Assembly: GCA_040375265.1 (NCBI GenBank)
Contig: JBEISV010000001.1
Location: 1-62,993, forward strand
DNA length: 62,993 nt
Reading direction: 5' to 3'
Origin: Verrucomicrobiales bacterium
Lineage (GTDB): Bacteria > Verrucomicrobiota > Verrucomicrobiia > Limisphaerales > UBA9464
The position numbers and the translations under genes are program-made. Position 1 is the first letter of the stretch, and each line of letters begins with the position of its first letter. Positions 3,646 to 48,694 of the stretch are shown in pieces. Under the pieces are notes generated by a model. That model was not told the DNA's origin. It did no database searches and was given only the letters and a program-made list of their open reading frames with translations.

Positions 3646-3718
3646 CTTCCGCAGCCGAAACCACCCAAGGTGCTGCGGGTGCCCGGCGCGGCGGCCCAGC
3701 AGCTCCACCTGCGGCCGG

Positions 3719-4384
3719 TCAGTTCCCCAGATACCGCACCACCGCCTCGGTGCGGGTCTGCACCTGGAGCTTGTCGTAGATGCTTCGCAGGTGCGTGCGC
3801 ACCGTCGTCGCGCCGATGCCCAGGCGCTCGGCGATCTCCTTGTAGAGCAAGCCCTTCGCCAGCGCGTCGAGGATCTCCCGTTCGCGCGGCGTCAGGCTGG
3901 GCAAGGGCACCGCGGCCGGCGGCGCTGCGGCGGGACGGGCCGAACCCGCGGCCTGGAACGACGCCACCACCTTGCGCGCGATGAGGCTGCTCATGGGCGA
4001 ACCGCCGTCCGTCACGTCGCGGATCGCCTCCAGCAGTTCCGCCGGCGGCGTTCGCTTGAGCAGGTAACCGCTCGCCCCCGCCCGCAGCGCGGCGAAGATC
4101 TTGTCCGCGTCCTCATACACCGTGAGCATGATCACGAGCAGGGTCGGTTTCCGGCGTTTCAGCTCCGCGACGCACTCTATGCCCGAGCGGCCGGGCAGGT
4201 TGATGTCCATTAGCACCACGTCGGCAATATCCGCCACGGCGCCCGCGAGCGCCTCCTCCGCGCTGCAGAAGGCGTTCACGCAGCGGTAGCCCTCCGCCAG
4301 CTCGAACAGCGAGATCAGGCTGGCACGGATGCGGGCGTCGTCCTCGACGAGGGCGACGCGGATGGGGTCGGCGGAAACCGGCAT
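3719..4384 (-). CDS. NarL/FixJ (LuxR-type) response regulator
   Basis: Receiver 'IRVALVEDDARIR..DVVLMDINLPGRSG..MLTVYED'. LuxR HTH 'LTPREREILDALAKGLLYKEIAERLGIGATTVRTHLRSIYDKLQV'. Start taken at MPVSADP (4384); an upstream ATG at 4426 is possible. Confidence 0.9.
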   Translation of the reverse strand: MPVSADPIRVALVEDDARIRASLISLFELAEGYRCVNAFCSAEEALAGAVADIADVVLMDINLPGRSGIECVAELKRRKPTLLVIMLTVYEDADKIFAALRAGASGYLLKRTPPAELLEAIRDVTDGGSPMSSLIARKVVASFQAAGSARPAAAPPAAVPLPSLTPREREILDALAKGLLYKEIAERLGIGATTVRTHLRSIYDKLQVQTRTEAVVRYLGN

Positions 4385-4515
4385 GGACACGCCGCGGTTA
4401 TCGCAGTTCCGCCCGCCGGGCAACATCGTCCAAAAGGAGGAGGCGGAAACCCTCGCGCCTCGTCCGAAGGGAGGATGCCGGAACCCCGGGGCCGTATGGT
4501 AAGCAGGGAGAAGCT

Positions 4516-7500
4516 ATGGAACACCTCCGATTCATTCCGGCCTTCCGACGCGCTCTCGCCTTCGGCCTGGGGCTATTGCTCGGCCTGACCGTGACGCTCG
4601 CCCAGGGCACCGCGTTCACCTACCAGGGCCAGCTCACCGACGGCGCGGCGGCGGCCAACGGCACCTACGACCTGCGCTTCACGCTCTGGAACGCCGCGAC
4701 CGTCGGCACCCAGCAGGGCGCCACCCTGACGCAGGATGCCGTTGGGGTGACCAACGGCCTGTTCACCGCCACGCTGGACTTCGGGGCGCAATTCAACGGG
4801 CAGAACCGCTGGCTGGAAATCGCCGTGCGGACCAACGGCGCGGCGGACTTCACGACGCTGGCGGAACGGCAGCCGGTGCTGCCCACGCCCTACGCCATCC
4901 ACGCCGCCACCGCCGGCAGCGCAGCCACGGCGACGATCGCCACGACCGTGACCGGCACTGTGCCCGCCAGCCAACTGACCGGCACCCTATCCGCCGCTCA
5001 AATCCCGAACCTCAATGCGGGCAAGATCACCGGTGGCACGTTCACCGGCAATGGCGGTGGCCTGACGAACGTTCCTGTGGGGGGCTTGGTTCACGATGAT
5101 TCCATCATTGTTGGATGGGGCGAAGCCGCCAATGGTCGGACAACGGCGCCATCGGGGATTGAGGATGCAGTCGCCATCGCCGCGGGCACGGCCCATAGCG
5201 TGGCGCTCAAGCGCGACGGAACCGTCGTCGTATGGGGAGCAACGAGTGCGCTTTTGACGGGCGTGCGAGACGTCGTCAGCATCGCGGCAGGTTACAACGC
5301 GACGTTCGCGGTCAGGGCGAACGGCACGGTGGTGGGTGAAGGGCCGTCCGCCAATTCGATGCCACCTAATCTTGCGAATGTGGTCGCAGTCTCTTGCCGG
5401 GAATTGAACGCGATGGCCCTCAGGTCGGACGGGACTGTGGTGGTTTGGGGCCCCTTGTCGGTCGGAACCGCGGGCATCTGGGCCCCCTTGGACTCGGTAG
5501 TTGAGATCGCCGCCGGCGTGTCATTTGGTCTGGCGCTGAAATCCGATGGCACAGTGGTGGCATGGGGCGATGCGGGCGCCATGCCTCCGGGGCTTGCCGG
5601 GGTAAAATCCATCTCGGCAGGAAACAGTCACAGTTTGGCGCTGAAAGCCGATGGCACCGTGGTTGCCTGGGGAAACAACGCCTCCTTGCAATCCACAGTG
5701 CCGGCTTGGCTTACCGATGTGGTCCAAGTTTCCGCCGGCCTTGACTACAGTCTGGCCTTACGCCGGGATGGGACGGTGGTGGCTTGGGGAAATGGGGGTT
5801 ATGGTCGCACTGCAGTTCCCGCAGATCTCACTGGTGTAAGGGCCATTGCTGCAGGTGGCTACCACGCCCTTGCCCTGAGTTTACCCGCCAATTACGCCCG
5901 GCTGGATGAGGACAATGTTTTCCACGGAACGGTGACTGCCGGCTTGTTCCGAGGCAAAGGCTCCAGTCTGACTGGTTTGAATGCCTCGGCGCTGTCCATG
6001 GGCACGGTGCCGGCGGCGCGGATTCCCAACCTGGATGCCTCCAAGATCACCTCGGGCACCTTCACGGGGAACGGCTCCGGGCTTACTTCGCTGAATGCGT
6101 CGGCGCTGACAACGGGCACGGTGCCAGTGGCGCAGATTCCCAACCTGGATGCCGGGCAGGTGACCACCGGAGCCTTCGCCACCGCACGGATCCCGACCTT
6201 GACGCCGGGCCATATCCCCAGCTTGGACGCCTCCAAGATAACTTCAGGAACCTTCACGGGGAATGGCTCCGGGCTGAGCCAAATCCCGCTCGGCGCGCTG
6301 GTTCAGCCCAACTACACCGTGGTCGCGTGGGGCGATGACGCTCACGGTCAAACCACCATTCCGGCTGGCTTGAGCAATGTGGTGAAAATTGTGGGAGGAT
6401 TCAATTACGGCATGGCGTTAAAGGCGGACGGCACCGTGGTGGCCTGGGGAGACAATGCGGCGGGCAAAGCCACGGTCCCCGTCGGCCTGACCGGTGTCGT
6501 GGACATCGCCGCAGGGAATTCGCACAGCTTGGCACTGAGGGTGGACGGGACGGTGGTCGCCTGGGGCTCCATCGGGTCCGGCGAAACCGCCGTTCCCGGC
6601 ACCCTGAAACAGGTCACGGCGGTCGCCGCCGGAGCTTTGTTCAGTCTGGCACTTAAGGCTGACGGCACCGTGGTCGCGTGGGGCGATCCGTTGCATGGCC
6701 AAACCACCGTTCCGGTCGGCCTCGCGAAGGTCGTAAGCATCGATGCCGGTGTAAATCACTGCTTGGCGCTTAAGGCCGACGGCACGGTGGTGGCTTGGGG
6801 ACGCAACGACCATAGCCAAGGAACGGTTCCCAGTGGCCTGTCCGGGGTGGTGGCAGTCGCGGCCGGATCTTCTCACAATTTGGTCCTAAAGGCCGACGGC
6901 ACGGTGGTCGCATGGGGGAATAACTTCTTCGGACAAACGAATGTGCCGAGCGGGCTAAATGGCGTCGTGAGCGTGGCGGCCGGTGGCGGCCACAGTCTTG
7001 CATTGAAGTCAGACGGCACGGTCGTTTCCTGGGGCTACAATCCTTCCCAGCAGTGGAATGTTCCTGCTGGCCTTGCCGATGTGGTGGCGCTTGCCGCCGG
7101 AATTTCGAGCAGTTTTGCGCTGAAACAGGAACCGGGCAGCAACCCTGAGTTCGCTCGCCTTGACCGGCTCAATTCGTTCCGCGGCGCCATTTCTGCCCCC
7201 GCCTTCTATGGCAATGGTTCCGGGCTCACCGCATTGAACGCCTCCGCGCTCAGTTCGGGCACAGTGCCCCAGGCGCGGATCCCGACGCTGAACCCGAGCC
7301 AGATTCCGAACTTGGATGCCGGCAAAGTTACGACGGGGACCTTTGCCGCCGAGCAAATCCCGAATCTGGACGCTTCCAAGATCACCTCGGGCACCTTCAC
7401 CGGGAACGGCTCCGGGCTGACGTCGCTGAATGCGTCGGCCCTGACCACGGGCACGGTGCCGTCGGAGCAGATTCCCAGCTTAGACGCCGGAAAGATCACC

Positions 7501-7590
7501 AGTGGTTTGTTTGCTGGAGCGGTGATTCCCGATCTGGATGCCGGCAAGGTGACACCGGAACCTTCGCGACTGCGCGGATTCCAACTCTGA
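4516..7590 (+). CDS. giant secreted fibre-like protein, paralog 1, N-terminal piece (signal peptide, conserved N-domain, two 7-bladed RCC1-like propellers, IPxLDAxKITxGTF repeats); truncated by a frameshift
   Basis: SD-like gggaga before the ATG. Signal peptide 'AFGLGLLLGLTVTLAQG'. Two sets of 7 'AAGxxHSLALKxDGTVVAWG' RCC1 blades. Reading continues in another frame from about 7551 (see 7611..8294). Confidence 0.85.
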   Translation: MEHLRFIPAFRRALAFGLGLLLGLTVTLAQGTAFTYQGQLTDGAAAANGTYDLRFTLWNAATVGTQQGATLTQDAVGVTNGLFTATLDFGAQFNGQNRWLEIAVRTNGAADFTTLAERQPVLPTPYAIHAATAGSAATATIATTVTGTVPASQLTGTLSAAQIPNLNAGKITGGTFTGNGGGLTNVPVGGLVHDDSIIVGWGEAANGRTTAPSGIEDAVAIAAGTAHSVALKRDGTVVVWGATSALLTGVRDVVSIAAGYNATFAVRANGTVVGEGPSANSMPPNLANVVAVSCRELNAMALRSDGTVVVWGPLSVGTAGIWAPLDSVVEIAAGVSFGLALKSDGTVVAWGDAGAMPPGLAGVKSISAGNSHSLALKADGTVVAWGNNASLQSTVPAWLTDVVQVSAGLDYSLALRRDGTVVAWGNGGYGRTAVPADLTGVRAIAAGGYHALALSLPANYARLDEDNVFHGTVTAGLFRGKGSSLTGLNASALSMGTVPAARIPNLDASKITSGTFTGNGSGLTSLNASALTTGTVPVAQIPNLDAGQVTTGAFATARIPTLTPGHIPSLDASKITSGTFTGNGSGLSQIPLGALVQPNYTVVAWGDDAHGQTTIPAGLSNVVKIVGGFNYGMALKADGTVVAWGDNAAGKATVPVGLTGVVDIAAGNSHSLALRVDGTVVAWGSIGSGETAVPGTLKQVTAVAAGALFSLALKADGTVVAWGDPLHGQTTVPVGLAKVVSIDAGVNHCLALKADGTVVAWGRNDHSQGTVPSGLSGVVAVAAGSSHNLVLKADGTVVAWGNNFFGQTNVPSGLNGVVSVAAGGGHSLALKSDGTVVSWGYNPSQQWNVPAGLADVVALAAGISSSFALKQEPGSNPEFARLDRLNSFRGAISAPAFYGNGSGLTALNASALSSGTVPQARIPTLNPSQIPNLDAGKVTTGTFAAEQIPNLDASKITSGTFTGNGSGLTSLNASALTTGTVPSEQIPSLDAGKITSGLFAGAVIPDLDAGKVTPEPSRLRGFQL

Positions 7591-7610
7591 CTTCCGGGCA
7601 AATCCCCAGT

Positions 7611-8294
7611 TTGGACGCTTCCAAGATCGCCACGGGCACGCTGGCGGATTCCCGGCTCAGCGGAAACGTGGCGTTGGAAAACGGAAGTCCGGCGTTCACC
7701 GCGGCGGCGGATGTCCGGGTGGCCAGCTTCACCGGTTCGCGCACAGGCAACCACAACGCGGCGGTGGTCCATGTGGAAAACACCGAAACCGGACCGACCG
7801 CCGCACCGGCCCTGCGAGTGCTGGCCAAGGGTGGCGACACCGAAGGCGCCCTGAGCGTGACGGCAAATGCGGGCCCGATCGCGCGCTTCGGCAATTTCAC
7901 CACCTGGGTGGCCAAACTGGACAACGCGGGGAATTTCTCGGCGACGTCCTTCATTTCGCTGTGCGACCGCAACAAGAAGGCTGGGTTCGCCCCGGTGGAC
8001 GTGGATTCGGTGCTGGCGAAGGTGGCTTCGCTGCCGCTGACGACGTGGCACTACACGAACGATGTGGCGGCGACGCCGCACCTCGGGCCGATGGCGCAGG
8101 ACTTCCACGCGGCCTTCGGCCTGGGCGAGAACGACAAGACCATCGCCACCGTGGACGCCGACGGCGTCGCCCTAGCCGCGATCCAGGGGCTCCACCGCAA
8201 AGTCGAGGTGCTCTCTTTGGAAAACGCCGAACTCCGGGCGCGTTTGGAACGGCTGGAAGCGCTGCTGCTCAACCGGGAGAGCCGAGGCAACTGA
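7611..8294 (+). CDS. C-terminal piece of paralog 1: tail-fibre / peptidase S74 intramolecular-chaperone domain plus coiled coil
   Basis: 'CDRNKKAGFAPVD..LPLTTWHYTND..PHLGPMAQDFHAAFGLGENDKTIATVDADGVALAAIQGL' followed by the heptad-like 'ENAELRARLERLEALL'. About 85% nt identity to the 3' end of 8391..11690. The frame is open from about 7551 and the TTG at 7611 is only an ORF-finder start. Confidence 0.8.
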   Translation: MDASKIATGTLADSRLSGNVALENGSPAFTAAADVRVASFTGSRTGNHNAAVVHVENTETGPTAAPALRVLAKGGDTEGALSVTANAGPIARFGNFTTWVAKLDNAGNFSATSFISLCDRNKKAGFAPVDVDSVLAKVASLPLTTWHYTNDVAATPHLGPMAQDFHAAFGLGENDKTIATVDADGVALAAIQGLHRKVEVLSLENAELRARLERLEALLLNRESRGN

Positions 8295-8390
8295 AACCGC
8301 CTCCTCCTTTTGGACGAGGCGGCAACAGCTCGGCCTCCTCCCAAGGGACGATGCCCAAGGCGAACCAACCTGTGCTCTGATGTCACCGTT

Positions 8391-11300
8391 ATGAAGCTCC
8401 ATGCAACCAATCCCGCCGCCGCGTCCGGCCTCGAAGTAGGGCAGGCTGCCAGCCTGCCCGCTGCGCCGGCCGGCGCGAAATTCGCCGCCAATTTTACTCC
8501 CGCCGTGGGCAGGCAGGCAGCCTGCCCTACTTTGGCTGGAACGCCTCGGATCCTGTGGGCACTGCCTGGCACTGCCCCGGCCTCCCTCTCCTTCACTCGG
8601 AGTGGAGGAGAGGGCCGGGGAGAGGAGGAAGCCGTCCATTCTGGCGGCAACGCAGGTGAGCCACCCCTCTCCCCCACCCTCTCCCCGTGCTTCGCTGCGG
8701 GGCGAGGGAGTCTCTCTACGGGGGTAGCGGCAGGATGCGCCCGGTTCCTCCGCACATGGGCCGCGCGACTGCTGGGCGTGGTCGCCGGCGCGGGCCTAGC
8801 GTGGGCGCAGGGAACGGCCTTCAGCTACCAAGGCCAACTCACCGACGGCGCGGCGGCGGCTAATGGCACCTACGACCTGACCTTCTCGCTGTGGAACGCC
8901 GCCACCGCCGGCATTCAGCAGGGCTCCACGCTCACGCAGAGCGCGGTGGGCGTGACCAACGGCCTGTTCACCGCCACGCTGGACTTCGGGGCCCAGTTCC
9001 CCGGCGCCGGCCGCTGGCTGGAAATCGCCGTGCGGACCAACGGCGCCGCGACCTTCACGACGTTGGCCGAACGGCAGCCCGTGCTGCCCACCACCTACGC
9101 GATCCACGCCGCCACCGCCGGCAGTGCGAACACCGCGACGACCGCCACGACCGTGACGGGCAGCGTGTCTGCCAGCCAACTGACCGGCACCCTGTCCGCC
9201 GCCCAAATCCCGAATCTCGATGCCAGCAAGATCACCGGTGGGACGTTTACCGGGAATGGCGGTGGGTTGACCAATGTGCTCCTCGATTCGCTCGTGCGGA
9301 TGGCTGACCCGGTTGTTGCTTGGGGCTTCCAAAGTTCGGACTTACTCAAACCCCCGACCGACCTGAGGAACGTGGTAGCCCTGAGTGGAGGGAGCTCACA
9401 TGTCCTCGCCTTGAAGCAGGACGGTTCGGTGGTGAGCTGGGGAGACAATTTTCACGGCAGGGCCACGCCGCCCGTCGGGTTGACTGATGTGGTCAAGATT
9501 TCGGCTAGCGATGGGCACAACCTCGCTCTGAATTCGGACGGCACGGTGGTGGCGTGGGGCGTCAATTCTGCCGGCCAGACCAGCGTTCCCGCCGGACTCG
9601 CCGGAGTCACTGCGATCGCGGCCGGGCTCAATTTCAGCATTGCCCTGAAGTCCGACGGTCAGGCTATTGGTTGGGGATGGGTTGATAATCTGTTACGTCC
9701 TGGGGGAATCGTAATTCCCGGGCATTCCAACCTGATCGCGATCGCGGCCGGGTCTCTTCACTGGTTGGCCTTGAAGGCGGACGGGAGTGTGGCGGAATGG
9801 GACCTTTTCGGAAATGCGCGGAGCGTTCCAAACGGTCTAACCGATGTGGTGGCCGTTGCGGCCGGAATAAGCCACAGCCTGGCCCTGAAATCGGATGGCA
9901 CCGTGGTGGCCTGGGGCAATGTAGAAAATGGCCAGACGGATGTGCCAGTCGGTTTGACCAATGTAGTTTCGGTGGTGGGCGGATATTGGCACAGCTTGGC
10001 ATTGAAGTCGGATGGCACCGTGGTGGCGTGGGGTGAGACCGGATTCCCCTCTCAGACCTTCGGTGGGCAAGCCACAGTGCCGGTGGGCCTGCCCAAGGCT
10101 TCGGCGATCGCCGCAACATGGTTTTCGAGCTTTGTCCTGCGGGCGGATCCAGTTGTTCCTGCGAAGCTGGCGCTGCTCGATCGCAGTAATGTTTTTGAAG
10201 CGGCCGTCTCTGCGCCGGGATTCTCAGGAGACGGCTCGGGCCTGACCAACCTCAACGCCTCGGCGTTGACCACGGGCACGGTGCCAGCAGCGCGGATTCC
10301 GACCCTGACGGCAGGTCATATTCCCAACTTGGACGCCTCCAAGATCACCTCGGGCACCTTCACGGGCGACGGCTCCGGGCTAACGTCGCTGAACGCCTCT
10401 GCGTTGACGACGGGCACGGTCGCCGACGGGCGTTTGAGTGCGAACATCCCGCGGCTGGATAGCAGTCCGACCATGGCCTCTCCACTGCGTCTGAACGGCC
10501 AGAAACTGCTTCTGAGCGCGCCCGTAAACGACGCCAGCGTTCTCCGGTATGCCTCATCATTCGCCGGGAACGGTGTCGCCGGGCCGGTTCTCTCGGGAAA
10601 TCAAGGCGGGGTGTTGGGCACGGGTGACGGCATTTCCGGACAGGAGCTTGCCGTGCTGCGTTGGCACTGGGACGGTGGTGTAATTGTTCCCGGGGCCCTG
10701 ACGGCGGGAACCGTTAGTGGTAACGGCTCCGGGCTGACCTCGTTGAACGCCACCGGCTTGAGCGCCGGCACGGTCAGCGACGCGCGGCTGAGCGACAACG
10801 TGGCATTTCTGAACGGGAGTCCGGCGTTCACCAGCAGCGTGCGGTTGGCGGACACCAACCTGTTCCTGCGGGGCGGTTCGGATACCAATCACGGGCTGGT
10901 GTGGTTCGGCGGCAGCCGGAGCTTTGCGGGGGAAACAGTGGACGGCCCCGTGCTCTATGGGTTTCTGGGCGGGGCGCTGGGTTCCACCAAGAACTCAGCC
11001 AAGATCGCCCTACGGTGGAACGACAGCGCGGACGTCAGCCTGGGTGGTGACCTGACGATCACCAACAACCTTAGCGTGAGCAGTCCGGTCGGAACTCGCG
11101 CGGCGAGCTTCACCGGCTCGCGCACCGGAAACATCAACTCGGCGGTGGTCCATGTGGAAAACACCGAGACCGGACCAACCGCGGCACCCGCCTTGCGCGT
11201 GGTGGGCCGGGGCGGCGATACCGAAGGAGCCCTGAGCGTGACCGCCAATGCGGGCCCGATTGCGCGGTTTGGCAATTTCAACGCCTGGGTGGCGACGATC

Positions 11301-11690
11301 CACAACAACGGCAACCTGAGCTTGAGCGGCACGGTCAACCCGCCGAGCGACCGGAACGTGAAGGCGGGCTTTGCGCCGGTCGACGTGGAGGCGGTGCTGG
11401 CGAAGGTGGCCTTGCTGCCGCTAACGACGTGGCATTACACGAACGACGCGGCGGCGACGCCGCACCTGGGGCCGATGGCTCAGGACTTCCACGCAGCCTT
11501 CGGCCTGGGCGGGGACGACAAGACCATCACCACCGTCGACGCCGACGGCGTGGCCCTCGCCGCCATCCAGGGGCTGCACCGCAAGACCGAGGCCCTCGCG
11601 GCGGAGAATGCGGAACTGCGCGGGGAACTCACGGACCTCCGCACGCTCGTCCTCCAGCTTCAGCAACAGCTCAACGCGAACCGTCCATGA
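8391..11690 (+). CDS. giant secreted fibre-like protein, paralog 2 (conserved N-domain, one 7-bladed RCC1-like propeller, long beta-rich stalk, C-terminal peptidase S74 chaperone domain)
   Basis: 'AQGTAFSYQGQLTDGAAAANGTYDL..RWLEIAVRTNG' matches paralog 1. Seven RCC1 blades. 'SDRNVKAGFAPVD..HLGPMAQDFHAAFGLGGDDKTITTVDADGVALAAIQGL' plus a coiled coil. The stop is secure. The start is uncertain: the first in-frame ATG (8391) reads through the palindromic repeats, and the signal peptide sits at about 8742-8806. Confidence 0.85.
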   Translation: MKLHATNPAAASGLEVGQAASLPAAPAGAKFAANFTPAVGRQAACPTLAGTPRILWALPGTAPASLSFTRSGGEGRGEEEAVHSGGNAGEPPLSPTLSPCFAAGRGSLSTGVAAGCARFLRTWAARLLGVVAGAGLAWAQGTAFSYQGQLTDGAAAANGTYDLTFSLWNAATAGIQQGSTLTQSAVGVTNGLFTATLDFGAQFPGAGRWLEIAVRTNGAATFTTLAERQPVLPTTYAIHAATAGSANTATTATTVTGSVSASQLTGTLSAAQIPNLDASKITGGTFTGNGGGLTNVLLDSLVRMADPVVAWGFQSSDLLKPPTDLRNVVALSGGSSHVLALKQDGSVVSWGDNFHGRATPPVGLTDVVKISASDGHNLALNSDGTVVAWGVNSAGQTSVPAGLAGVTAIAAGLNFSIALKSDGQAIGWGWVDNLLRPGGIVIPGHSNLIAIAAGSLHWLALKADGSVAEWDLFGNARSVPNGLTDVVAVAAGISHSLALKSDGTVVAWGNVENGQTDVPVGLTNVVSVVGGYWHSLALKSDGTVVAWGETGFPSQTFGGQATVPVGLPKASAIAATWFSSFVLRADPVVPAKLALLDRSNVFEAAVSAPGFSGDGSGLTNLNASALTTGTVPAARIPTLTAGHIPNLDASKITSGTFTGDGSGLTSLNASALTTGTVADGRLSANIPRLDSSPTMASPLRLNGQKLLLSAPVNDASVLRYASSFAGNGVAGPVLSGNQGGVLGTGDGISGQELAVLRWHWDGGVIVPGALTAGTVSGNGSGLTSLNATGLSAGTVSDARLSDNVAFLNGSPAFTSSVRLADTNLFLRGGSDTNHGLVWFGGSRSFAGETVDGPVLYGFLGGALGSTKNSAKIALRWNDSADVSLGGDLTITNNLSVSSPVGTRAASFTGSRTGNINSAVVHVENTETGPTAAPALRVVGRGGDTEGALSVTANAGPIARFGNFNAWVATIHNNGNLSLSGTVNPPSDRNVKAGFAPVDVEAVLAKVALLPLTTWHYTNDAAATPHLGPMAQDFHAAFGLGGDDKTITTVDADGVALAAIQGLHRKTEALAAENAELRGELTDLRTLVLQLQQQLNANRP
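8433..8708. repeat. cluster of REP-like palindromic units
   Basis: GAAGTAGGGCAGGCTGCCAGCCTGCCC (8433-8459) recurs inverted at 8508-8533. Each copy has an internal GGGCAGGC/GCCTGCCC stem. Two further hairpins with CCCTCTCC/GGAGAGGG-type arms lie at 8584-8614 and 8677-8708. Confidence 0.7.
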
Positions 11691-12583
11691 ACGTGCTTCA
11701 CCCGATTCCTGCCATGAAACCAGCTCCATTTGTTGGCTCAGTGCCCACGGGCGGCACCCGTTCGGTTGCCAATCCGCAATCCGCAATCCGCATTCCGCAT
11801 TCCTACGGAGCCTCCTCACGTCGGCTGCCACGGACGGGGTTGGCGCTGCTGTTGGGATTGGGCTCGGCGATGGCGGCGGACTACGCCATGGCGCGGCACA
11901 CGTTTGCCGGCGGGGCGGTGAGCAGCGGCGGGAACTTCGTGGTGCGCGGGAGCATCGGCCAGGCGGTGGCGGGACCGGTGAGTGGCACAGGGGCGACGGT
12001 GCAGGGCGGCTTCTGGAACCTGCTGACGCTGCCCAGCCTGGTGGCGCCGGCGGAGGATGCGGTCGAGTTCCTGGCGAACCGGTCGGTGAAGGTGCCGCTG
12101 TCCACGTTGGTGGCGAACGACCGTTCGCTGCTCGGTTACGGCCTCACGGTGGTGGCCGTGGACCCAGTGACGGCCAACGGCGGCACGGTGACCATCGCCG
12201 GCCGCTGGCTGATCTATCAGCCGCCCGCGGGACCGGCGGCGAACGACAGTTTCCACTACACGCTCGGCGACGGCCAGCCGGGCGCCCAGCACACGGTCAC
12301 CGGCACAGTCCGGCTGAGCTTGGAAACACCGAACCCGAATGACGGTCCGGCGCCCAACGCGGCGCACATCGCGTGGGCCGGCGACGACGTGACGATCACG
12401 TTCATCGGCGTGCCGTTTCGCGAATACCGGGTGCAATACACGGAGAACACCGTGCCGCCGTTGAACTGGAACGACTTCAATCCGGCGGGCGTCCACGCGG
12501 CGGCGGCGAACGGCGTCTTCGTCCACACCGATGCCAACCCCGGCAGCTCGCTGCGCCTTTACCGCGCGATCGCCAACCCCTGA
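11687..12583 (+). CDS. secreted cadherin-like/Ig-like domain protein
   Basis: The ATG overlaps the upstream TGA (ATGA at 11687-11690). Signal peptide 'GLALLLGLGSAMA'. 'VANDRSLLGYGLTVVAVDPVTANGGTVTIAG..NDSFHYTLGDG' is cadherin-like. C-terminal module ends 'LRLYRAIANP'. The start is uncertain (long N-region containing a 7-nt repeat tract). Confidence 0.75.
   Translation: MNVLHPIPAMKPAPFVGSVPTGGTRSVANPQSAIRIPHSYGASSRRLPRTGLALLLGLGSAMAADYAMARHTFAGGAVSSGGNFVVRGSIGQAVAGPVSGTGATVQGGFWNLLTLPSLVAPAEDAVEFLANRSVKVPLSTLVANDRSLLGYGLTVVAVDPVTANGGTVTIAGRWLIYQPPAGPAANDSFHYTLGDGQPGAQHTVTGTVRLSLETPNPNDGPAPNAAHIAWAGDDVTITFIGVPFREYRVQYTENTVPPLNWNDFNPAGVHAAAANGVFVHTDANPGSSLRLYRAIANP
11771..11805. repeat. heptanucleotide tandem repeat (AATCCGC x3, ATTCCGC, ATTCCTA)
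   Basis: Read directly: aatccgc aatccgc aatccgc attccgc attccta. The unit length is not a multiple of 3. It lies between the candidate start codons and the signal peptide of the 11687 gene. Confidence 0.9.
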
Positions 12584-12593
12584 GGAATTCAAA

Positions 12594-13295
12594 ATGAAGA
12601 CTGGAACCATGAAGAATGGATTGTTGCTCGGGGCGCTGTTTGCCGCCGCGCTGCCGGCGTCCGCAATCATCGTCACGGAGCCCACGCAGACGTGGTCGGT
12701 GGGTTACACGGTGAGCGACGACGGGAACACCGCCGGGCCGTTTGGGATCGATGTCACGGGTTCCGCCATCGGGGCGATCACACGCGTCGAGGTGGGGCTG
12801 TCGTTCAGCGGGGTGGGCGTGGACGGCGGCTTCGCCGGCGACCTGGTGGTGACCCTGGCCTGGACCCCGATGGGCGGCGGGCCGCAGGACATCGTCACGT
12901 CGCACCTGCTGAACCGCATCGGGGCGGGCACGTTGGGTGGGGGAACGTTCGGCTTCGCCTACGACTCGGTGAACGTGACGTTGAGCGATGATGCGGCCGG
13001 CGGGGACATCCACACCACGTCGCTGGTAGGCGCGGCGTTGACCGGCGCCTTCGAACCCGATGGCCGGTCGGTGGCCACGGGGAGCGCCCGTGATTTCCGG
13101 CTGAACGTTTTCAACGGCCAGCCGGCGGACGGCTCGTGGCAGCTCTTCGTCACGGACATGAGTTCCGGCGGCCAGATGCGGCTGGACAGTTGGTCACTCA
13201 CGCTGACCGGCGACAATCAGGTGCCCGAGGCATCCACCTGGGCGGCGGGCGCGGCGATGCTGGGCTTGGTCGCATGGCGGCGGTGGCGCGGGTAG
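12594..13295 (+). CDS. proprotein-convertase P-domain protein with PEP-CTERM anchor
   Basis: SD 'gagga' 7 nt upstream of the ATG. Signal peptide 'LLLGALFAAALPASA'. P-domain-like 'GDLVVTLAWTP..' and 'FNGQPADGSWQLFVTDMSSGGQMRLDSWSLTLTG'. C-terminal 'VPEASTWAAGAAMLGLVAWRRWRG' (PEP motif, TM, Arg-rich tail). Confidence 0.85.
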   Translation: MKTGTMKNGLLLGALFAAALPASAIIVTEPTQTWSVGYTVSDDGNTAGPFGIDVTGSAIGAITRVEVGLSFSGVGVDGGFAGDLVVTLAWTPMGGGPQDIVTSHLLNRIGAGTLGGGTFGFAYDSVNVTLSDDAAGGDIHTTSLVGAALTGAFEPDGRSVATGSARDFRLNVFNGQPADGSWQLFVTDMSSGGQMRLDSWSLTLTGDNQVPEASTWAAGAAMLGLVAWRRWRG

Positions 13296-13348
13296 GGCCG
13301 GAACGGCCATTCCTCGGTAGACGGGTTTGGGCAGGCTGCGGACGCGAG

Positions 13349-13532
13349 GCAAAGTAGGTCTCGTGAGGGAGGAGGCAGCCACCGGGACCCGTCCACCGAA
13401 GGATGGCAACGGAACGCAGCGGGAGCGCGGCGCAATGTGCTGAAGGGAGCCAGCCACCATTTGAGCAAAGGATCATTCGCGGCTCAGAGAGCCGCGCTCC
13501 CGAACCGCCCGAGATCCGCCGACCTACTTTGC
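13349..13532. repeat. 184-bp element bounded by perfect 13-bp inverted repeats, with nested palindromes
   Basis: GGCAAAGTAGGTC (13349-13361) pairs with GACCTACTTTGCC (13520-13532). Nested 11-bp pair GGGAGCGCGGC (13421-31) / GCCGCGCTCCC (13491-501). 7-bp hairpin GCGGCTC-aga-GAGCCGC (13479-95). Confidence 0.7.
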
Positions 13533-13533
13533 C

Positions 13534-16500
13534 CTACTTCAGGGGCAATTCGACGCTGATCTTCGTGCCGGTCGCGGGCGTGCTGGTGATCGTGCAGCGG
13601 CCGCCGGCGAGCCGGGCGCGTTCGCGCATGTTGCCGAGTCCATCGTTGAAGCGGCCCGCCGTGGCAGGATCGAAGCCGCGGCCGTTGTCGGCGAGTTCCA
13701 GCCGGAGCGTGCGTCCCTCGACCGCGGCGCGGACCGTCACCTCCGTCGCACCGGAATGCTTGAGCGCATTGTTGAGGGCTTCCTTCATCAGGAGCAGGAC
13801 GTGGTGGCGCGTGGCGGCGGGCACCGGGTCGTCCGGCAGGCGCGGCGGCAGGTCGAGCCGGCACGCCCAGCCCGCGGGCGCAACGTATTCCTGGGCGAAA
13901 CCGGCGAGGTATTCGACCAGTCCGGCCACGGTGTCGTGCTCCGGGTCCACGGTCCAAACCATCGCATCGAGGTTGCGCACCACGTCGCGGGAAAGGTTGC
14001 CCAGTTCGTCGAGGCGGGAGGCGGTGCCGGCCGGATCCTGGAGCTGGCGGCGGGCCAGTTCGCTGAGCAGGCCAATCTGCGTGAGACTGGCGCCGACGTC
14101 GTCGTGCATGTTGCGGGCGATTCGGGCGCGCTCGCGATTGACAGCCTGGTCGCGTTCGAGGGCGGCGACCTGGAGGCGTAGCCGGCGTTGCGACAGCCAG
14201 CGCACCGCTCCCGCCAACAGGATCAGCGCGACGGTGGCGGCCGTCAGGCGGAACGGCAGCGTCTGCCACAGGAAAGGCCGCACGGTTACGGCCACGGTTG
14301 CCCCGAGGTCGTTCCACACGCCGTCATTGTTGGCGGCGGTGACCCGGAACGTGTAGTTGCCGGGCGCCAGGCGGGTGTAGGCGGCGGAACGGATGTTGCC
14401 GGTTTCGCGCAGTTCCTCCTCGAAGCCGACAAGGCGGCAGCGGAACCGGTTGCGTTCGGGCGCCACAAAGCTGAGGGCGGTGAACCGGAACTCGGTGAGC
14501 AAGGTGCCCGGCGGAATTTCGACCCGCCCGGCCCGCAGTTCCAAGGCGTGCCCATCGGCCATCACCGCCTCGATCACCACCGGCGGGACGAGGGGATTCT
14601 TGGGCAGGTTCTTCGGGTCGATGATGGCCAGCCCGTTCAACGTGGCGAACCACAGCCGCCCGTCCGGGCCTTTCCAGACGGCCGGCTGGATGCCGCCGCA
14701 CTCATTGGAAGGCATGCCGTCGGCGCGGTCGAAACGGGTGGGTTCAATCCGTGGGCGGCGGCCTTCGCAGAACTCGTCCAGCTCGGACTTGGCGCAGCGG
14801 ACAACGCCTCGGGGGGTGCCCCACCAGAGGGCGCCGTGATCGTCGGCGACGAGGGATTTGATCGTCTCGACCGGCAGTCCGTCGCCGGCGCGGATCGGGG
14901 TGAACTTGCCCTCCTTGAGCCGGGTAAGGCCGCCGCCGCCGATCCACAGGGTGCCATCGGCGTCGCGAAACAGCGCACGCACGTGGTCATGGGCGAGCCC
15001 GTCGGTGCGGGTGAAGGTGCGCGTGCCGGCGTCGTCCACGCGGACGAGTCCGCGATTGCCGCCGGCCCAGACGGCACCCGCGCCGGCCTCGGCCAAGGCT
15101 CCCACGTAATTGTCGGGCAGGCCGTTGGTCTGGGTCCATCGGCGAAACTGCCCCTGGGCGCGCCGCGACAGCCCCTCGGCCCCGCCCACCCAGAGTTGCC
15201 CCAGAGAATCTTCCAGCAGCGCGAACATCGGCCCGCCGATGAGCCCCGGGGCATTGGTCGGGAGCCAGACCCGGGACGTCGCCGAGCCCGGCGCCACGTC
15301 GAACAGACCCAGACCATACGAGCCCACCCAGAGGCCACCGTCTGGTCGCGGCCAGACGCACCAAGCGAGCTGACTGTCGTTCAATGCCGGCGGCCGCAGC
15401 ACCTGTTCGAAGCGGCGGCCGTCGAAGCGCTGCACACCACGGCCGTGCACCGCCGTCAGCACCTCGCCCTCCGGACGGACCGCCACCGAGAGCACGACCG
15501 GCCGGGTCAGCCCTTCGGCTGTGCCAACCGCCCGCACGCTGCGGCGACGCAACCGGAACAGGCCGGCGCCATCGGTGCCGATCCACAGGTTGCCCTCACG
15601 GTCCTCCAGGGCGGCCCGGTGCGCGTTGCTGGCCAGGGCGGTTTCCCGCCCGACTTCGGCCCAGCCCCCGGCCGGTCCCCGGCGAAACAGCGGCCCTTGG
15701 TTCAGGCACCAGAGCGTGCCCCCGCGTTCGCGGCAGAACCGCGCCCCGGAACGGCTGGGGAACGGAAACCGTTCGAACAGTTCGAGTGCGCCCTGATGGT
15801 GTCGCAACAGATGGGAACCACGGGGCACGCCTTCCACCAACACCGAGCCGTCGGGCAAGGGCACGATGCCGCTCCCGGCGCGGCCTTCGCCCTTGGGCTT
15901 GAAGCGGTGCCAGCGGTTCTGTTCGAGGTAGGCAAACTCGCCCACCTGCTCGGTCCAGATGCGGCCGGAGTGGTCGAAGACCAGTTGCCAGAGCTCTCCC
16001 CAGTCCGGCCGCGGCGCCTCCGCGGCCACCACGAACCGTTGCCCGTCACGGCGCAACAGGCGACCGGCCTTGGTCCCCGCCCACACCGTGCCATCGGGGG
16101 CGGCCTCAATCCGGGGTGAAGTGCCGCCGGGCAGCCCATCCGCTTCGGTGAGCCGGTGGAAGCGGCCGGCCGAGTAGTGGGCGACTGGGCCATCCGAGCC
16201 GCTCAGCCACAGCCCGTTATCCTTGTCTGTGCTCAGGTAGGTGAAATAGCTGGCGAGCTCCGGCACCTGGTCCGGATCAAACACCTCAAAGCGAACGCCG
16301 TCGAAGCGGGCCAAGCCGCCGAAGGTGGACAGCCACAGGTAACCGTCCGTCGTCTGGGCGATCGCGATGACCGAGTTCTGCGGCAGGCCGTCGTCGGAGG
16401 TCCACTGCTGGATCAGGTATTCGCCGGAAGCGGAAGGCAGGTTGGTCCCGGTCGGTCTTGGCATTTCGGCGCCGAGCAAGCCGCACCCGCCGACCAGGGC

Positions 16501-16614
16501 AAGCAGGGCAATCTTCAACAGGGCGGAGGTCACCCCGGCAGCTTGCCCCCGGGGGACGGCGCCGAAAAGCCCGCGGACGCCGAAATTGGCAGACCCGGCC
16601 GTCCCGGCCAGCAA
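13534..16614 (-). CDS. sensor histidine kinase, two-component-regulator propeller + Y_Y_Y sensor, HisKA_3/HATPase_c (NarX/LiaS-type output)
   Basis: Repeated 'LWIGT/LWVGG..GL.R' propeller blades. TM 'LTAATVALILLAGAV'. HisKA_3 H-box 'ERARIARNMHDDVGASL'. ATPase 'EALNNALKHSGA..DNGRGF'. Confidence 0.9.
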   Translation of the reverse strand: MLAGTAGSANFGVRGLFGAVPRGQAAGVTSALLKIALLALVGGCGLLGAEMPRPTGTNLPSASGEYLIQQWTSDDGLPQNSVIAIAQTTDGYLWLSTFGGLARFDGVRFEVFDPDQVPELASYFTYLSTDKDNGLWLSGSDGPVAHYSAGRFHRLTEADGLPGGTSPRIEAAPDGTVWAGTKAGRLLRRDGQRFVVAAEAPRPDWGELWQLVFDHSGRIWTEQVGEFAYLEQNRWHRFKPKGEGRAGSGIVPLPDGSVLVEGVPRGSHLLRHHQGALELFERFPFPSRSGARFCRERGGTLWCLNQGPLFRRGPAGGWAEVGRETALASNAHRAALEDREGNLWIGTDGAGLFRLRRRSVRAVGTAEGLTRPVVLSVAVRPEGEVLTAVHGRGVQRFDGRRFEQVLRPPALNDSQLAWCVWPRPDGGLWVGSYGLGLFDVAPGSATSRVWLPTNAPGLIGGPMFALLEDSLGQLWVGGAEGLSRRAQGQFRRWTQTNGLPDNYVGALAEAGAGAVWAGGNRGLVRVDDAGTRTFTRTDGLAHDHVRALFRDADGTLWIGGGGLTRLKEGKFTPIRAGDGLPVETIKSLVADDHGALWWGTPRGVVRCAKSELDEFCEGRRPRIEPTRFDRADGMPSNECGGIQPAVWKGPDGRLWFATLNGLAIIDPKNLPKNPLVPPVVIEAVMADGHALELRAGRVEIPPGTLLTEFRFTALSFVAPERNRFRCRLVGFEEELRETGNIRSAAYTRLAPGNYTFRVTAANNDGVWNDLGATVAVTVRPFLWQTLPFRLTAATVALILLAGAVRWLSQRRLRLQVAALERDQAVNRERARIARNMHDDVGASLTQIGLLSELARRQLQDPAGTASRLDELGNLSRDVVRNLDAMVWTVDPEHDTVAGLVEYLAGFAQEYVAPAGWACRLDLPPRLPDDPVPAATRHHVLLLMKEALNNALKHSGATEVTVRAAVEGRTLRLELADNGRGFDPATAGRFNDGLGNMRERARLAGGRCTITSTPATGTKISVELPLK

Positions 16615-23934: not shown

Positions 23935-24010
23935 TGGTGGCTGCGGCCGGAATCGAACCAGCGACACGCGGATTTTCAATCCGCTGCTCTACCAACTGAG
24001 CTACACAGCC
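23935..24010 (-). tRNA. tRNA-Phe (anticodon GAA), CCA encoded
   Basis: The reverse complement folds as a cloverleaf: acceptor GGCTGTG/CGCAGCC, D-arm GCTC-AGTTGGTA-GAGC, anticodon arm GCGGA-TTGAAAA-TCCGC, T-arm GCTGG-TTCGATT-CCGGC, discriminator A plus CCA. 76 nt. Confidence 0.95.
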
Positions 24011-40324: not shown

Positions 40325-40590
40325 GCCGAAGCTGAATCCGGACCGCCCGATTACTCCATCCTGAACTCATCAAGCCGTGTGCCGCTGAAATCCATCCGGT
40401 AGATCATGCCGCCGTAGCCGATGGCGTAGAGGTTGCGTGCCGCGGCGGAATTGGCCGCCGGTGGGAGCCGCGGCGAAACCGGGCGGCGGCCAACCCTGAT
40501 TTTTGGCCGGGAGGGCGCCGTTGTCCCCGGAACCGTCACCGAACCGCCGATTGACCCCGGCCCCCCGGCCTCTAGGCTGGCGGCCGTTTT

Positions 40591-41820: not shown

Positions 41821-41850
41821 GCGGTGGCCGGGAAGGCCAACGCGGAAAGC

Positions 41851-41888
41851 AAAACGCCGGCAGCATGACTGCCGGCTTTTTCATTTTT
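41851..41888 (+). terminator. rho-independent terminator after apgM
   Basis: Perfect stem GCCGGCAG-catga-CTGCCGGC (41856-41876) followed by TTTTTCATTTTT. Confidence 0.85.
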
Positions 41889-41917
41889 CGGTGCCGTTAG
41901 CGCGACCGTCTTCCGAT

Positions 41918-42508: not shown

Positions 42509-42951
42509 GCGGGTCTACTTCCGCCTGCATGATTAGCCAATCGGTTTCCAAATGTTGAGAGCCAAACGAGCCTCGGAAACATCAGGCCGACGTTCAGCTA
42601 CTTGAACGTCATTTTCCAGTCTCAACCCAATAGTTCCCCACCGCGCTCCGGAGCTAAGCGGTGGCGCCCGTCGGTCCCTGGTGGACCAAGGTTCCGCAGG
42701 TAGTCGTGGCCTTCAATCCACGGAACAGACCGCCCCCGCCTTTCGTCGCGGAGCGACGGCTGGCCGCCAAGTTGGCACAGCTTTCAAGAAACGCACCGAC
42801 ACCGTGCGCAGTTGATCCCGCCCCGGCATTGGCGCCGCGTAGAAGGCCGTGCCTGTGAAGTGTGAGGGCGGGCGTGATCTCATGTTTCACGCCGCACCCA
42901 ACCGGAGCGCGATGGCCAATTGCGCTGCCGCGTAGGGTTGGCGTTTCCGGT

Positions 42952-48685: not shown

Positions 48686-48694
48686 TTCCTGACC

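Follow-up and report, generated by a model that had tools for sequence, protein, structure and literature searches.

Is a run of genes whose fibre proteins end in a phage-type S74 chaperone domain, and which lies between the two genes of a two-component system, a piece of phage or a device of the bacterium that carries it, and what would such a device do? The host of this cassette is a freshwater Verrucomicrobiota lineage, and the window analysed is one whole contig of 62,993 bp. The genes of the cassette are the following.

3719-4426, minus strand: response regulator (RR) of the NarL/LuxR type (REC and GerE HTH), divergent from paralog 1
4516-8294, plus strand: fibre paralog 1 (Pfam RCC1_2 and Peptidase_S74), with a 1-nt frameshift
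8391-11690, plus strand: fibre paralog 2, a public gene call of 1099 aa
11687-12583, plus strand: secreted Big_9 (Ig-like) accessory protein (Big_9, 1.2e-8)
12594-13295, plus strand: secreted P-domain protein (P_proprotein) with a PEP-CTERM-type tail
13534-16614, minus strand: HisKA_3 sensor histidine kinase (HK; Pfam Reg_prop, Y_Y_Y, HisKA_3 and HATPase_c), convergent on the operon end

The two fibre proteins share a common plan, whose parts are located as follows.

4516-4602, plus strand: paralog 1 signal peptide
4603 to ~4917, plus strand: paralog 1 N-domain
~5095-5883, plus strand: paralog 1 propeller A
~6307-7131, plus strand: paralog 1 propeller B, followed by stalk repeats, the tip and then CDRNKK
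7962-7979, plus strand: paralog 1 CDRNKK
to 8294, plus strand: paralog 1 S74 domain and coiled coil
8394-8741, plus strand: in-frame, hairpin-rich insert of paralog 2, which separates the conserved start codon from the core of the signal peptide
8742-8807, plus strand: paralog 2 signal-peptide-like segment
8808, plus strand: paralog 2 mature-type start (QGTAF)
8808 to ~9122, plus strand: paralog 2 N-domain
~9303-10148, plus strand: the one seven-bladed propeller of paralog 2, followed by stalk repeats, two repeated beta modules and then the tip
11346-11363, plus strand: paralog 2 SDRNVK, with the S74 domain following
11565-11687, plus strand: paralog 2 coiled coil

Every domain named in the original prediction was recovered by Pfam at its predicted position, including the C-terminal S74 chaperone of both paralogs (Peptidase_S74, 3.3e-11 in the 3' part of paralog 1 and 1.6e-10 in paralog 2). 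The N-domain, foreseen as a conserved stretch of ~100 aa, is 88% identical between the paralogs; its structure model is confident and all-beta (pLDDT ~82-96 over residues 1-95), with no significant match among PDB and viral structures. Complete seven-bladed RCC1-like propellers, a pair in paralog 1 and a single one in paralog 2, are borne out by the RCC1_2 matches (6.5e-96 and 1.4e-38, respectively) and by seven blade motifs per propeller. They had also been pictured as displayed heads, and this picture must be abandoned because the propellers are internal, BLIP-II-type modules, with stalk repeats on both sides and a non-propeller tip beyond. The S-D-R-x-x-K motif occurs in paralog 2 and in all 16 homologues examined. 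Modelled as a monomer, the C-terminal 306 aa gave a poor structure (pLDDT 60), with which a fold search returned nothing significant.

The cassette is not confined to this contig. As the comparison of related genomes shows, the gene order RR, fibre(s), Big_9, P-domain/PEP-CTERM and HK recurs in ~10 related Verrucomicrobia loci with differing flanks. Identity between the window and one of these loci, L001, is 97% for the RR, 95% for Big_9, 88% for the P-domain protein and ~90% for the HK core, and 22-56% for the fibre middle and tip; when near-identical genomes are compared, hypervariability is confined to the fibre middle and the HK sensor, all else being conserved. Within the fibre, the N-domain is the most conserved part and the middle and tip vary: the fibre of L004 has no propellers, that of L003 has added FG-GAP repeats, and the tips are of at least three types.

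These proteins share several features with phage fibres. Like K1F endosialidase, T5 pb1 and the phi29/GA-1 appendages, they match PF13884 (41-44 bits, cut-off 22), with an S-D-x-x-x-K motif in a C-terminal position and helices after it; the stalk and S74 regions match PHROG tail and tail-fibre families, and phage fibres populate the weak, non-significant list from the C-terminal fold search. If the proteins were domesticated tail fibres of a phage, a tailocin or an eCIS, serving as receptor-binding fibres of a contractile or phage-tail-like particle encoded elsewhere in the genome, these matches would be explained, and our view is confined to a contig that ends at 62,993 bp. However, the cytoplasm is where phage and eCIS fibres are assembled, whereas paralog 1 and the family members P0010, P0063 and P0014 have classical N-terminal Sec signal peptides. 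Sheath, tube, baseplate, capsid and terminase genes are absent from the 63 kb and from 10 related loci; likewise, no phage structural or integration genes occur among the substantial ORFs of the whole contig, in line with the original remark that no capsid, terminase, portal, baseplate or integrase genes are visible on either side, and the contig carries housekeeping and secretome genes throughout. Across GenBank phages, no single protein matches over more than 33% of the fibre. The N-domain family comprises 45,116 clusters at E<=1e-3, nearly always at the protein N-terminus, and occurs in viral sequence at a single IMG/VR locus among 2.9 M viral contigs; its members in Verrucomicrobiota are annotated by PGAP as "tail fiber domain-containing protein", and one member is found in Phycisphaerales. 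Together with the conserved, dedicated two-component genes and operator-like boxes described below, which would place the fibres under a control that sets them apart from phage S74 proteins, these data make a phage-derived particle fibre very improbable. Because the contig genes are of housekeeping and secretome type, the ~10 loci have different flanks and the N-domain is rare in viral contigs, the original view that the cassette is cellular and not a prophage is supported.

The two accessory genes are closely tied to the fibre. In all related loci the fibre gene is followed by Big_9 (as a short homologue in the distant L003), whose ATG here overlaps the stop of paralog 2 as ATGA, an overlap kept in L001 and L002. 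This overlap had been correctly predicted; the protein had been called cadherin-like, and its Pfam match is to Big_9, with Cadherin_5 below the threshold. The protein, which has an N-terminal motif AGG..SGG..GxIGQ...GGFW and a C-terminal module ...RLYRA, is found in only 11 clusters in 5.8 billion. The P-domain PEP-CTERM protein expected just downstream is confirmed, starting at ATG 12594 after a 10-nt spacer and scoring 26.4 bits for P_proprotein (cut-off 21). Such a P-domain is a beta-sandwich like that of the proprotein convertases. The tail VPEASTWAAGAAMLGLVAWRRWRG (13221-13292) is PEP-CTERM-like, and 8 loci share this type of tail (VPEx, ~17 hydrophobic residues, Arg-rich end); no exosortase gene is present on the contig.

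No outer-membrane translocation or anchoring signal was recognised in the fibre itself, and the sole sorting signal, of the PEP-CTERM type, is on another protein. The fibre could thus be released rather than anchored to the cell, as a trimeric binding protein or inhibitor, e.g., a secreted lectin-like or BLIP-II-like factor that would coat or neutralise an environmental target protein or polymer. The propeller of paralog 2 indeed matches over its full length (E 2e-33) the beta-lactamase inhibitor BLIP-II of Streptomyces exfoliatus (PDB 1JTD, 3QHY), a compact seven-bladed propeller of ~270 aa, although in the cassette such propellers are built into a fibre as modules, one or two per chain, and do not stand alone as inhibitors. 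We regard release as unlikely: a best-conserved N-domain beside a variable middle and tip is what one would expect of an end that docks in a constant way, the fibre never lacks its two small, conserved surface or secreted partners in the cassette, Pfam detected no catalytic domain, and characterised analogues of like layout are surface-displayed (PMC10769870).

Whether the cassette is intact in this genome must also be considered. For paralog 1, the giant secreted fibre originally proposed stands as to its domains, signal peptide and S74 region, but not as a single ORF: the frame is broken by a 1-nt frameshift at ~7554/7555, with an in-frame stop at 7588-7590. The S74 part, which runs to 8294, continues in a different frame, and one inserted base restores a 1259-aa protein. 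The ortholog in L001, P0001, is intact (1328 aa). A cleavage motif had been expected in both paralogs; paralog 2 has it as SDRNVK, whereas in the CDRNKK of paralog 1 a Cys replaces the nucleophile Ser, in comparison with intact orthologues. Judged from the frameshift and this exchange, paralog 1 on this contig may be inactive. In paralog 2, the hydrophobic core of the predicted signal peptide is present but not N-terminal, lying ~120 residues inside the sole ORF with a canonical start. Its ATG at 8391 aligns with the real starts of other fibre genes and is without an obvious Shine-Dalgarno sequence; it lies 117 codons upstream of the signal-peptide-like segment, directly before which there is no start codon. 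The insert of ~350 nt contains a 32-nt inverted repeat (8434-8465/8501-8532) and has an RNA fold z of -5.7, and the Big_9 gene has an insert of ~40 codons carrying (CAATCCG)n that is absent in L002. Read as damage, these features would make the cassette a relic, with paralog 1 a pseudogene and paralog 2 and Big_9 crippled by repeat insertions that precede their signal peptides. This is conceivable but rather doubtful, as the inserts are in frame, stop-free and, at 95% identity, conserved in L001, and several other relatives have comparable N-terminal extensions. Furthermore, the coding sequence beyond the inserts is undamaged and well conserved, the RR, the HK and both accessory genes are intact, and the frameshift of a single base could have arisen in assembly, the contig being a repeat-rich one from a metagenome.

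The flanking two-component genes were found as predicted, the LuxR-type RR divergent from the operon and the HisKA_3 propeller-sensor kinase convergent on it. The RR (Response_reg 1e-24, GerE 3e-17) is a 235-aa product in the database gene call on the contig, with an alternative start at ATG 4384, and lies upstream of the fibre in six related loci. The HK, at the equivalent position in nine, consists of an N-terminal TM, a ~750-aa periplasmic Reg_prop double propeller plus Y_Y_Y, a second TM, HisKA_3 and HATPase_c. The pair resembles HisKA_3-LuxR systems of the NarX/NarL type in its HisKA_3, HATPase_c, REC and GerE domains. In Bacteroides hybrid two-component systems, Reg_prop/Y_Y_Y periplasmic sensors are glycan sensors. 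The cassette HK shares these sensor families, but it is not a hybrid, HK and RR being separate genes that bracket their target operon, and its sensor domain is hypervariable between close relatives. Two pairs of palindromes accompany these genes.

4426-4441 and 4460-4475, unstranded: pair of 16-bp imperfect palindromes, TCSTCC-N4-GGASGA, between RR and paralog 1; candidate RR operator, the second box ending ~40 nt before ATG 4516
8302-8317 and 8336-8351, unstranded: second pair, ending ~40 nt before ATG 8391

The 63 kb contain six exact copies of the motif against an expectation of 0.04, and four of these copies sit upstream of the two fibre genes. L001 and L008 also keep the second pair between their paralogs, box pairs spaced 34-35 nt stand upstream of the fibre genes in five loci, and in every locus that keeps the RR they lie ~40-90 nt upstream of each fibre ATG. 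Locus L012 has kept the fibre trio and lost RR and HK; all that is left there is one box with a single mismatch and a fragment that by eye looks like the RR 5' end. Conserved synteny and a cassette-specific palindromic box pair upstream of every fibre gene support the predicted regulatory link between the cassette and the RR and HK at its flanks. The HK sensor alleles do not covary with the fibre variable regions across six loci (rho 0.07), and therefore the sensed ligand need not be the target of the fibre.

The original prediction was aware of no characterised example of this architecture; an analogue does exist. In the mosaic adhesive trimer (MAT) fibres of Bdellovibrio bacteriovorus, whose S74 subgroup includes Bd3182, a signal peptide and a conserved beta-rich N-domain come before a trimeric fibre with an S74 or other tip, and the family is already recorded from both PVC and FCB bacteria (Caulton et al. 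2024, PMC10769870). Both are cellular, non-phage proteins of ~1000 aa with several paralogues per genome, in which the signal peptide is directly followed by a conserved beta-rich N-domain of ~100-130 aa without PDB homologue, a long phage-fibre-like shaft with mosaic, exchangeable distal parts, and a C-terminal S74 chaperone/protease with an SDxxxK motif (PMC10769870). The N-domains are likened by layout and not by sequence, and the S74 profile of the fibre family matches solved structures only marginally (MyRF, E 0.044), with no match to Bd3182, K1F or T5 in the PDB. Unlike MATs, for which this domain is not listed (PMC10769870), the cassette fibres carry RCC1/BLIP-II propellers in the shaft; they also have a dedicated HisKA_3/LuxR pair with operator-like boxes, two conserved co-encoded accessory genes, and a Verrucomicrobiota host that is not a known predator. 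The cassette is thus a variant of recently described bacterial MAT fibre adhesins and not a new kind of system. Our main reading, to which we assign a probability of roughly 0.6, is a trimeric adhesive fibre, analogous to these proteins, that is exported by Sec, assembled by S74 and placed under two-component control; its trimerisation, cleavage, surface display and ligand are what we infer.

The locus can then be described as a chromosomal, self-contained "sense-and-display" module. The periplasmic double propeller and Y_Y_Y of the HK would detect an external ligand, probably a glycan by analogy with its sensor class, and the HK would phosphorylate the adjacent RR, a pairing suggested by family rules and conserved synteny. 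The RR would bind the paired palindromes before the fibre ATGs and in its own divergent promoter region, and so drive the fibre gene(s) together with Big_9 and P-domain/PEP-CTERM, which are tightly coupled to them. Following the S74 family, the exported fibre proteins would trimerise from the C-terminus on the intramolecular chaperone, which would cut itself at SDRNVK and be removed with the coiled coil (~114 residues). The mature fibre would have a conserved Ig-like N-domain proximal to the cell, phage-tail-fibre-like stalk repeats, a variable beta-rich tip and one or two BLIP-II/RCC1-type seven-bladed propellers per chain as lateral binding modules. More speculatively, the Big_9 and P-domain partners, one of them exosortase-sorted, may be the likeliest surface dock or assembly factors for the N-domain. 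In function, such a mosaic fibre would resemble the MAT adhesins, its base staying constant and the part that binds the target being exchanged rapidly.

The two giant fibre genes of the window belong to a cellular cassette linked to a two-component pair. In this respect, the original prediction proved essentially right, both from the scans of the contig and from the synteny conserved in other genomes, and the observation behind it is real, with three corrections needed; the trimer, its cleavage, and its display are putative. The DNA has a G+C content of about 67%, and the products of the RR, paralog 2, Big_9, and P-domain genes are all recorded from one public contig of 62,993 bp, i.e., the window itself. 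All the domains that had been named beforehand were recovered by the Pfam scan, and the features considered here are arranged as follows.

Features of the cassette and its surroundings
3719-4426, minus strand: NarL/LuxR-type response regulator (RR), with REC and GerE domains (Pfam)
4426-4475: first pair of palindromic boxes (copies at 4426 and 4460, 34 nt apart), ending about 40 nt before the ATG of paralog 1
From 4516, plus strand: run of four fibre and accessory genes (Pfam), encoding the two giant paralogs, the Big_9 protein, and the P-domain protein
8302-8351: second pair of palindromic boxes (copies at 8302 and 8336, 34 nt apart), ending about 40 nt before the ATG of paralog 2
8394-8741, plus strand: nested-hairpin insert of about 350 nt in paralog 2, with 32-nt inverted repeat arms at 8434-8465 and 8501-8532
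11693-11810, plus strand: insert of about 40 codons, in frame, directly behind the ATG of the Big_9 gene, with (CAATCCG)n at 11770-11799; the orthologue at locus L002 is without it
13534-16614, minus strand: sensor histidine kinase (HK), with Reg_prop, Y_Y_Y, HisKA_3, and HATPase_c domains (Pfam), convergent on the run
23935-24010: tRNA-Phe, the sole RNA gene, 7 kb from the cassette and with no integrase beside it

Both fibre proteins draw on one set of modules, namely the N-domain, one or more RCC1_2 propellers, short stalk repeats, a beta-rich tip, the Peptidase_S74 chaperone domain (S74), and a terminal helix predicted to be a coiled coil. The N-domains of the two paralogs are 88% identical, and in paralog 1 the sequence QGTAF follows a signal peptide of 29 aa. 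The 7-bladed propellers are present as announced, a pair in paralog 1 and a single one in paralog 2 (RCC1_2 matches of 6.5e-96 and 1.4e-38 in Pfam), and each of the three is complete, with seven blade motifs at a spacing of about 39 aa. The nearest protein to the propeller is the Streptomyces beta-lactamase inhibitor BLIP-II, matched over residues 1-269, the whole length, at an E value of 2e-33. The stalk repeats, of the IPxLDAxKITxGTF and GNGSGLTxLN types, match tail-protein families of PHROG.

The C-terminal Peptidase_S74 domain (PF13884, gathering score 22) was likewise found, at 43.7 bits in the 3′ part of paralog 1 and 41.5 bits in paralog 2. The Ser-Lys dyad motif S-D-x-x-x-K holds for paralog 2 (SDRNVK, 11346-11363) and fails for paralog 1 (CDRNKK, 7962-7979), which has a Cys at the position of the cleavage nucleophile; S-D-R-x-x-K occurs in 16/16 homologues examined. 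The C-terminal 306 aa gave a poor AF2 monomer model (pLDDT 60), for which Foldseek returned no PDB match at E<=0.001. The C-terminus searched as a single sequence also found no match in the PDB, and the S74 profile matched only MyRF there, marginally (E 0.044).

Paralog 1 had been read as one ORF, and this reading has to be given up: the reading frame meets a stop at 7588-7590, and the part that carries S74, which extends to 8294, lies in another frame. Judged against the neighbouring repeats, 1 nt is lost at about 7554/7555; one added base restores an uninterrupted protein of 1259 aa, and the orthologues at loci L001 and L008, from other genomes or metagenomes, are intact. At the other end of the gene, an upstream ORF of 36 codons (4475-4585) runs, in a different frame, into the start of paralog 1; its ATG is embedded in the second box of the first palindromic pair (GGAGGATGCC). 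The equivalent upstream ATG of L001 is in frame and was taken by the gene caller as the start of the fibre (P0001). A second frameshift, suspected in the S8 protease region at 37-39.5 kb, turned out to be a separate oxidoreductase gene.

The signal peptide of paralog 2 is not N-terminal, and the signal-peptide-like segment at 8742-8807 has no nearby upstream in-frame canonical start. GTG 8778 would leave the signal peptide too short, and ATG 8735 and ATG 8756 are out of frame, as they also are in L001; since L001 is 95% identical there, this is not a sequencing error. In an upstream alignment of seven fibre genes, the ATG at 8391 lines up with the true ATGs of three of them, namely paralog 1 and the fibres of L002 and L007, and therefore about 350 nt are inserted, in frame and stop-free, before the signal-peptide core. 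As folded RNA, the insert is unusually structured (MFE -256 kcal/mol, z = -5.7), and it is 95% identical in L001. The fibres of L004 and L008 also have in-frame inserts, of other sizes.

The two accessory genes follow closely. The ATG of the gene for the Ig-like Big_9 protein overlaps the preceding stop as ATGA, just as had been described, and the gene for the protein with the P_proprotein domain begins 10 nt past the Big_9 gene. The latter protein has the tail VPEASTWAAGAAMLGLVAWRRWRG, which conforms to VPE[APST] followed by a stretch of about 17 hydrophobic residues and an end rich in Arg, an arrangement kept in 8 orthologues, and the L002 orthologue carries the canonical VPEP. The sole NCBIfam match of this protein, PEP_CTERM_FxDxF, is sub-cut-off (20.6 bits vs 50), and Pfam scans found no exosortase gene among the substantial ORFs of the 63-kb contig. 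The heptanucleotide repeat of the Big_9 insert translates as ...NPQSAIRIPHS..., and similar "PQSAFRxP" stretches occur in the N-terminal extensions of the fibre homologues P0005, P0007, and P0013.

The idea that these genes are part of a prophage was rejected on the evidence of Pfam scans, of searches of phage genomes, and of a scan of IMG/VR. As had been claimed, the window has no genes for a capsid, terminase, portal, baseplate, or integrase, and it has none for a sheath or tube either, a result that covers the contig's substantial ORFs, scanned with Pfam, together with the gene tables of related loci, in which no virion, tail-particle, or integrase genes were found. The flanks hold, among others, genes for a hybrid kinase, transaldolase, an RDD/GYF protein, a release factor, an amidase, a beta-lactamase-fold protein, SLT, EF-P, an aminotransferase, an S8 protease, FG-GAP/ASPIC proteins, and LpxD. 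With tblastn against 50,697 phage genomes, only separate weak matches were obtained (23-36% identity for the RCC1 modules, 37-43% for S74), and none covered >33% of a fibre protein. Among 2.9 million IMG/VR contigs, a single one encodes the N-domain; this contig, L011, is 49.6 kb long and has it in a 902-aa ORF at 3576-6284. The mentions of "RCC1" in a prasinovirus paper are strain numbers of a culture collection and not the domain. Elsewhere in the window, the G+C content drops to 0.59 at 41800-44000 vs about 0.67 in the remainder; the ORFs scanned in this stretch have no Pfam match, no mobile-element gene was found in it, and 42991-43672 aligns to an L001 gene called Fib_succ_major.

The link with regulation is genetic, in that a HisKA_3 and HATPase_c kinase and a REC and GerE regulator accompany the fibre genes both in the Pfam scan and in conserved synteny, as anticipated. 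In the HK, about 750 aa of periplasmic sequence lie between an N-terminal and a second TM segment. Two exact copies of one 21-mer are present in the window, the first upstream of paralog 1 and the other, in inverted orientation, ahead of paralog 2, and this 21-mer resolves to a 16-bp imperfect palindrome, TCSTCC-N4-GGASGA, of which the window has six exact copies vs 0.04 expected. Ahead of their fibre genes, L004, L007, L008, and L013 also have box pairs 34-35 nt apart, and L001 has two such pairs. L002 has one exact copy. Palindromes of this size are typical binding sites of GerE/LuxR-type dimers. The paired boxes, which are observed as such, are a candidate operator to which the RR would bind. 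Autoregulation of the RR is plausible because the first pair sits in the divergent region between the RR and fibre genes. The fifth exact box (15032-15047) is within the coding sequence of the HK, and L014 likewise has one match in its HK gene; the sixth (42004-42019) lies near 42 kb, where L001 has no extra match. A sigma-70 promoter and terminator scan of the window gave nothing informative, and an Rfam scan of the window found only a tRNA.

There are close homologues that combine RCC1 and S74, 60-64% identical at best, one of them being a "tail fiber domain-containing protein" of Pedosphaera parvula (P0063). The synteny check on relatives, which drew on the contexts of these homologues and on two locus scans, bore out the arrangement, with a divergent RR, one or two fibres, the Big_9 protein, the P-domain protein (with its VPEx-hydrophobic-Arg tail), and a convergent HK. 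Loci with this full order are L001/L005, which belong to an uncultured Verrucomicrobiota MAG, L007, which comes from a Verrucomicrobia bin and shares its contig with the P0014 locus, and also L002, L004, L008, and L013, while the short contigs L006, L009, L010, and L014 have the same order as far as they extend. The outer flanks are unlike between related loci. The HK adjoins the end of the operon in 9/9 related loci that extend that far, and the RR lies upstream of the fibre in six of the seven that cover that region. The exception, L012, has a fibre trio and no two-component genes; a stretch that by eye resembles the 5′ end of the RR and a 1-mismatch relic of one upstream box remain there, so that the loss is secondary. 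In the distant variant L003, the fibre, a short GGFW-motif protein, the HK, and the RR are all on one strand. With 11 clusters in 5.8 billion, the Big_9 partner is rare, and this exact cassette is therefore confined to a narrow clade, although metagenome run ERR9973199 also contains a contig with it; locus scans with the Big_9 protein gave three loci in genomes and three in metagenomes, which makes the specific cassette rare although the fibre family is huge.

Compared with the window, L001 appears to have the segment from about 3685 to 40526 inverted (breakpoints at about 3650-3685 and about 40527), and the DNA corresponding to 40527-50314 lies reversed directly beside its RR gene, so that one breakpoint is at the edge of the cassette. 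In the window, a hybrid sensor kinase (GAF, PAS_3, HisKA, HATPase_c, and REC domains) at 1-3645 on the plus strand, with its 5′ end lost to the end of the contig, abuts the RR. Its 94% identical counterpart in L004, with Reg_prop-like N-terminal repeats, also abuts the RR, and in L001 the hybrid kinase is not adjacent to it. This kinase may be a second input to the RR.

The N-domain marks a much larger family. At E<=1e-3, its profile matched 45,116 cluster representatives (clusters at 50% identity), of which 12,339 are left at E<=1e-30, and in most of the 150 matches listed it starts no more than a few dozen residues into proteins of 200-1200 aa. The named members are each a "tail fiber domain-containing protein" of Verrucomicrobiota, along with one hypothetical protein of Phycisphaerales. 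The Pfam scan placed no family over the domain. Its AF2 model is confident and all-beta, with six strands and a pLDDT of about 82-96 over residues 1-95; fold searches of the PDB and BFVD gave generic Ig-like similarity only, with nothing at E<=0.001, and the profile had weak, sub-significant matches in the PDB to the Ig-like Cpe0147 and FlgD. An unrelated metagenome contig, L015, has tandem S74 fibre genes at 4352-7589 followed by a MazE/PIN toxin-antitoxin pair; one of these genes seems to be divided into two ORFs, one of 147 aa with the N-domain only and one of 359 aa with a beta-helix and S74, and many database matches to the N-domain are short fragments of this kind.

Variation within the cassette is concentrated in the middle of the fibres and in the sensor. 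Between L001 and the window, the flanking DNA is 91-95% identical, the RR 97%, and the Big_9 protein 95%, and the fibre orthologues are 59-64% identical overall: their N-domain and S74 region reach 86-100%, the propellers and stalk repeats are mostly at 34-60%, and the tips are as low as 22-24%. In summary values, the N-domain stands at 90% or more against 22-56% for middle and tip. In fibres elsewhere, the number of propellers ranges from none (L004) through one to two, extra FG-GAP repeats occur in L003, and there are at least three types of tip. For the HK, the same comparison gave mostly 88-98% in the kinase core vs 32-82% in the periplasmic sensor. The sensor alleles (about 14250-16500) are shuffled with respect to phylogeny: that of the more distant L007 is 87-88% identical to the one of the window, and the HKs of L001 and L008 share another allele (90%). 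Since these alleles ignore relatedness while the kinase core tracks the RR (rho 0.98, six loci), the pattern suggests that sensor domains are exchanged by recombination. Co-variation of the sensor with the variable regions of the fibres was also considered and rejected (Spearman rho 0.07, p 0.81, from six loci and n = 15 non-independent pairs).

The closest characterised system is that of the mosaic adhesive trimer (MAT) fibres of Bdellovibrio, surface-displayed proteins of about 1000 aa, in which a signal peptide precedes a conserved N-domain of about 130 aa that is rich in beta structure and has no PDB homologue; a trimeric phage-like shaft comes next and ends in an autoproteolytic S74 domain (SDxxxK) or in other tip domains (PMC10769870). 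Members are listed in PVC, FCB, and other groups (PMC10769870), and the PDB entries for the Bdellovibrio proteins are of tips only. Paralog 1 resembles them in having its signal peptide directly before a beta-rich N-domain without significant PDB match, whereas paralog 2 differs in that its signal core is not N-terminal; both fibres of the window also have a constant base and mosaic, exchangeable distal parts. The fibres of the window are MAT-like in layout and very probably work in the same way, as candidate members of the MAT family. New here are the placing of BLIP-II-type propellers in the shaft, a two-component pair of the cassette's own, accompanied by operator-like boxes, and two constant accessory proteins, Big_9 and the P-domain protein with its PEP-CTERM-like tail. 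That the latter dock the constant N-domain, or assist in its assembly, is speculative.

A bolder and unlikely reading is that the cassette would be an autonomous target-recognition module of an unsuspected lifestyle of freshwater Verrucomicrobia, in which they would attach to other microbes or algae, prey on them, or live on them as epibionts. Its hypervariable sensor and propeller/tip modules would be reshuffled between strains like the receptor-binding proteins of phages, and the Big_9 and PEP-CTERM partners would be the long-sought dock for the N-domain common to tens of thousands of MAT-like fibres across bacteria.

Cellular fibres terminated by S74 were characterised only in 2024, in one predator, and this locus of Verrucomicrobia follows the same building plan, with an N-domain that marks an enormous family labelled by annotation pipelines just as "tail fiber domain-containing protein". 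The conserved ends, set against the hypervariable middle and sensor, offer a compact example of phage-like diversification of receptor binding in a cellular gene. The dedicated kinase and regulator, with the candidate operator, provide a regulatory handle that MAT fibres are currently without, and the two small surface proteins always co-encoded with the fibres are candidate docking partners, so that what holds such fibres on the cell becomes directly testable. As a result, a large and barely studied MAT-like family gains a regulator, a candidate operator, and candidate docking partners.
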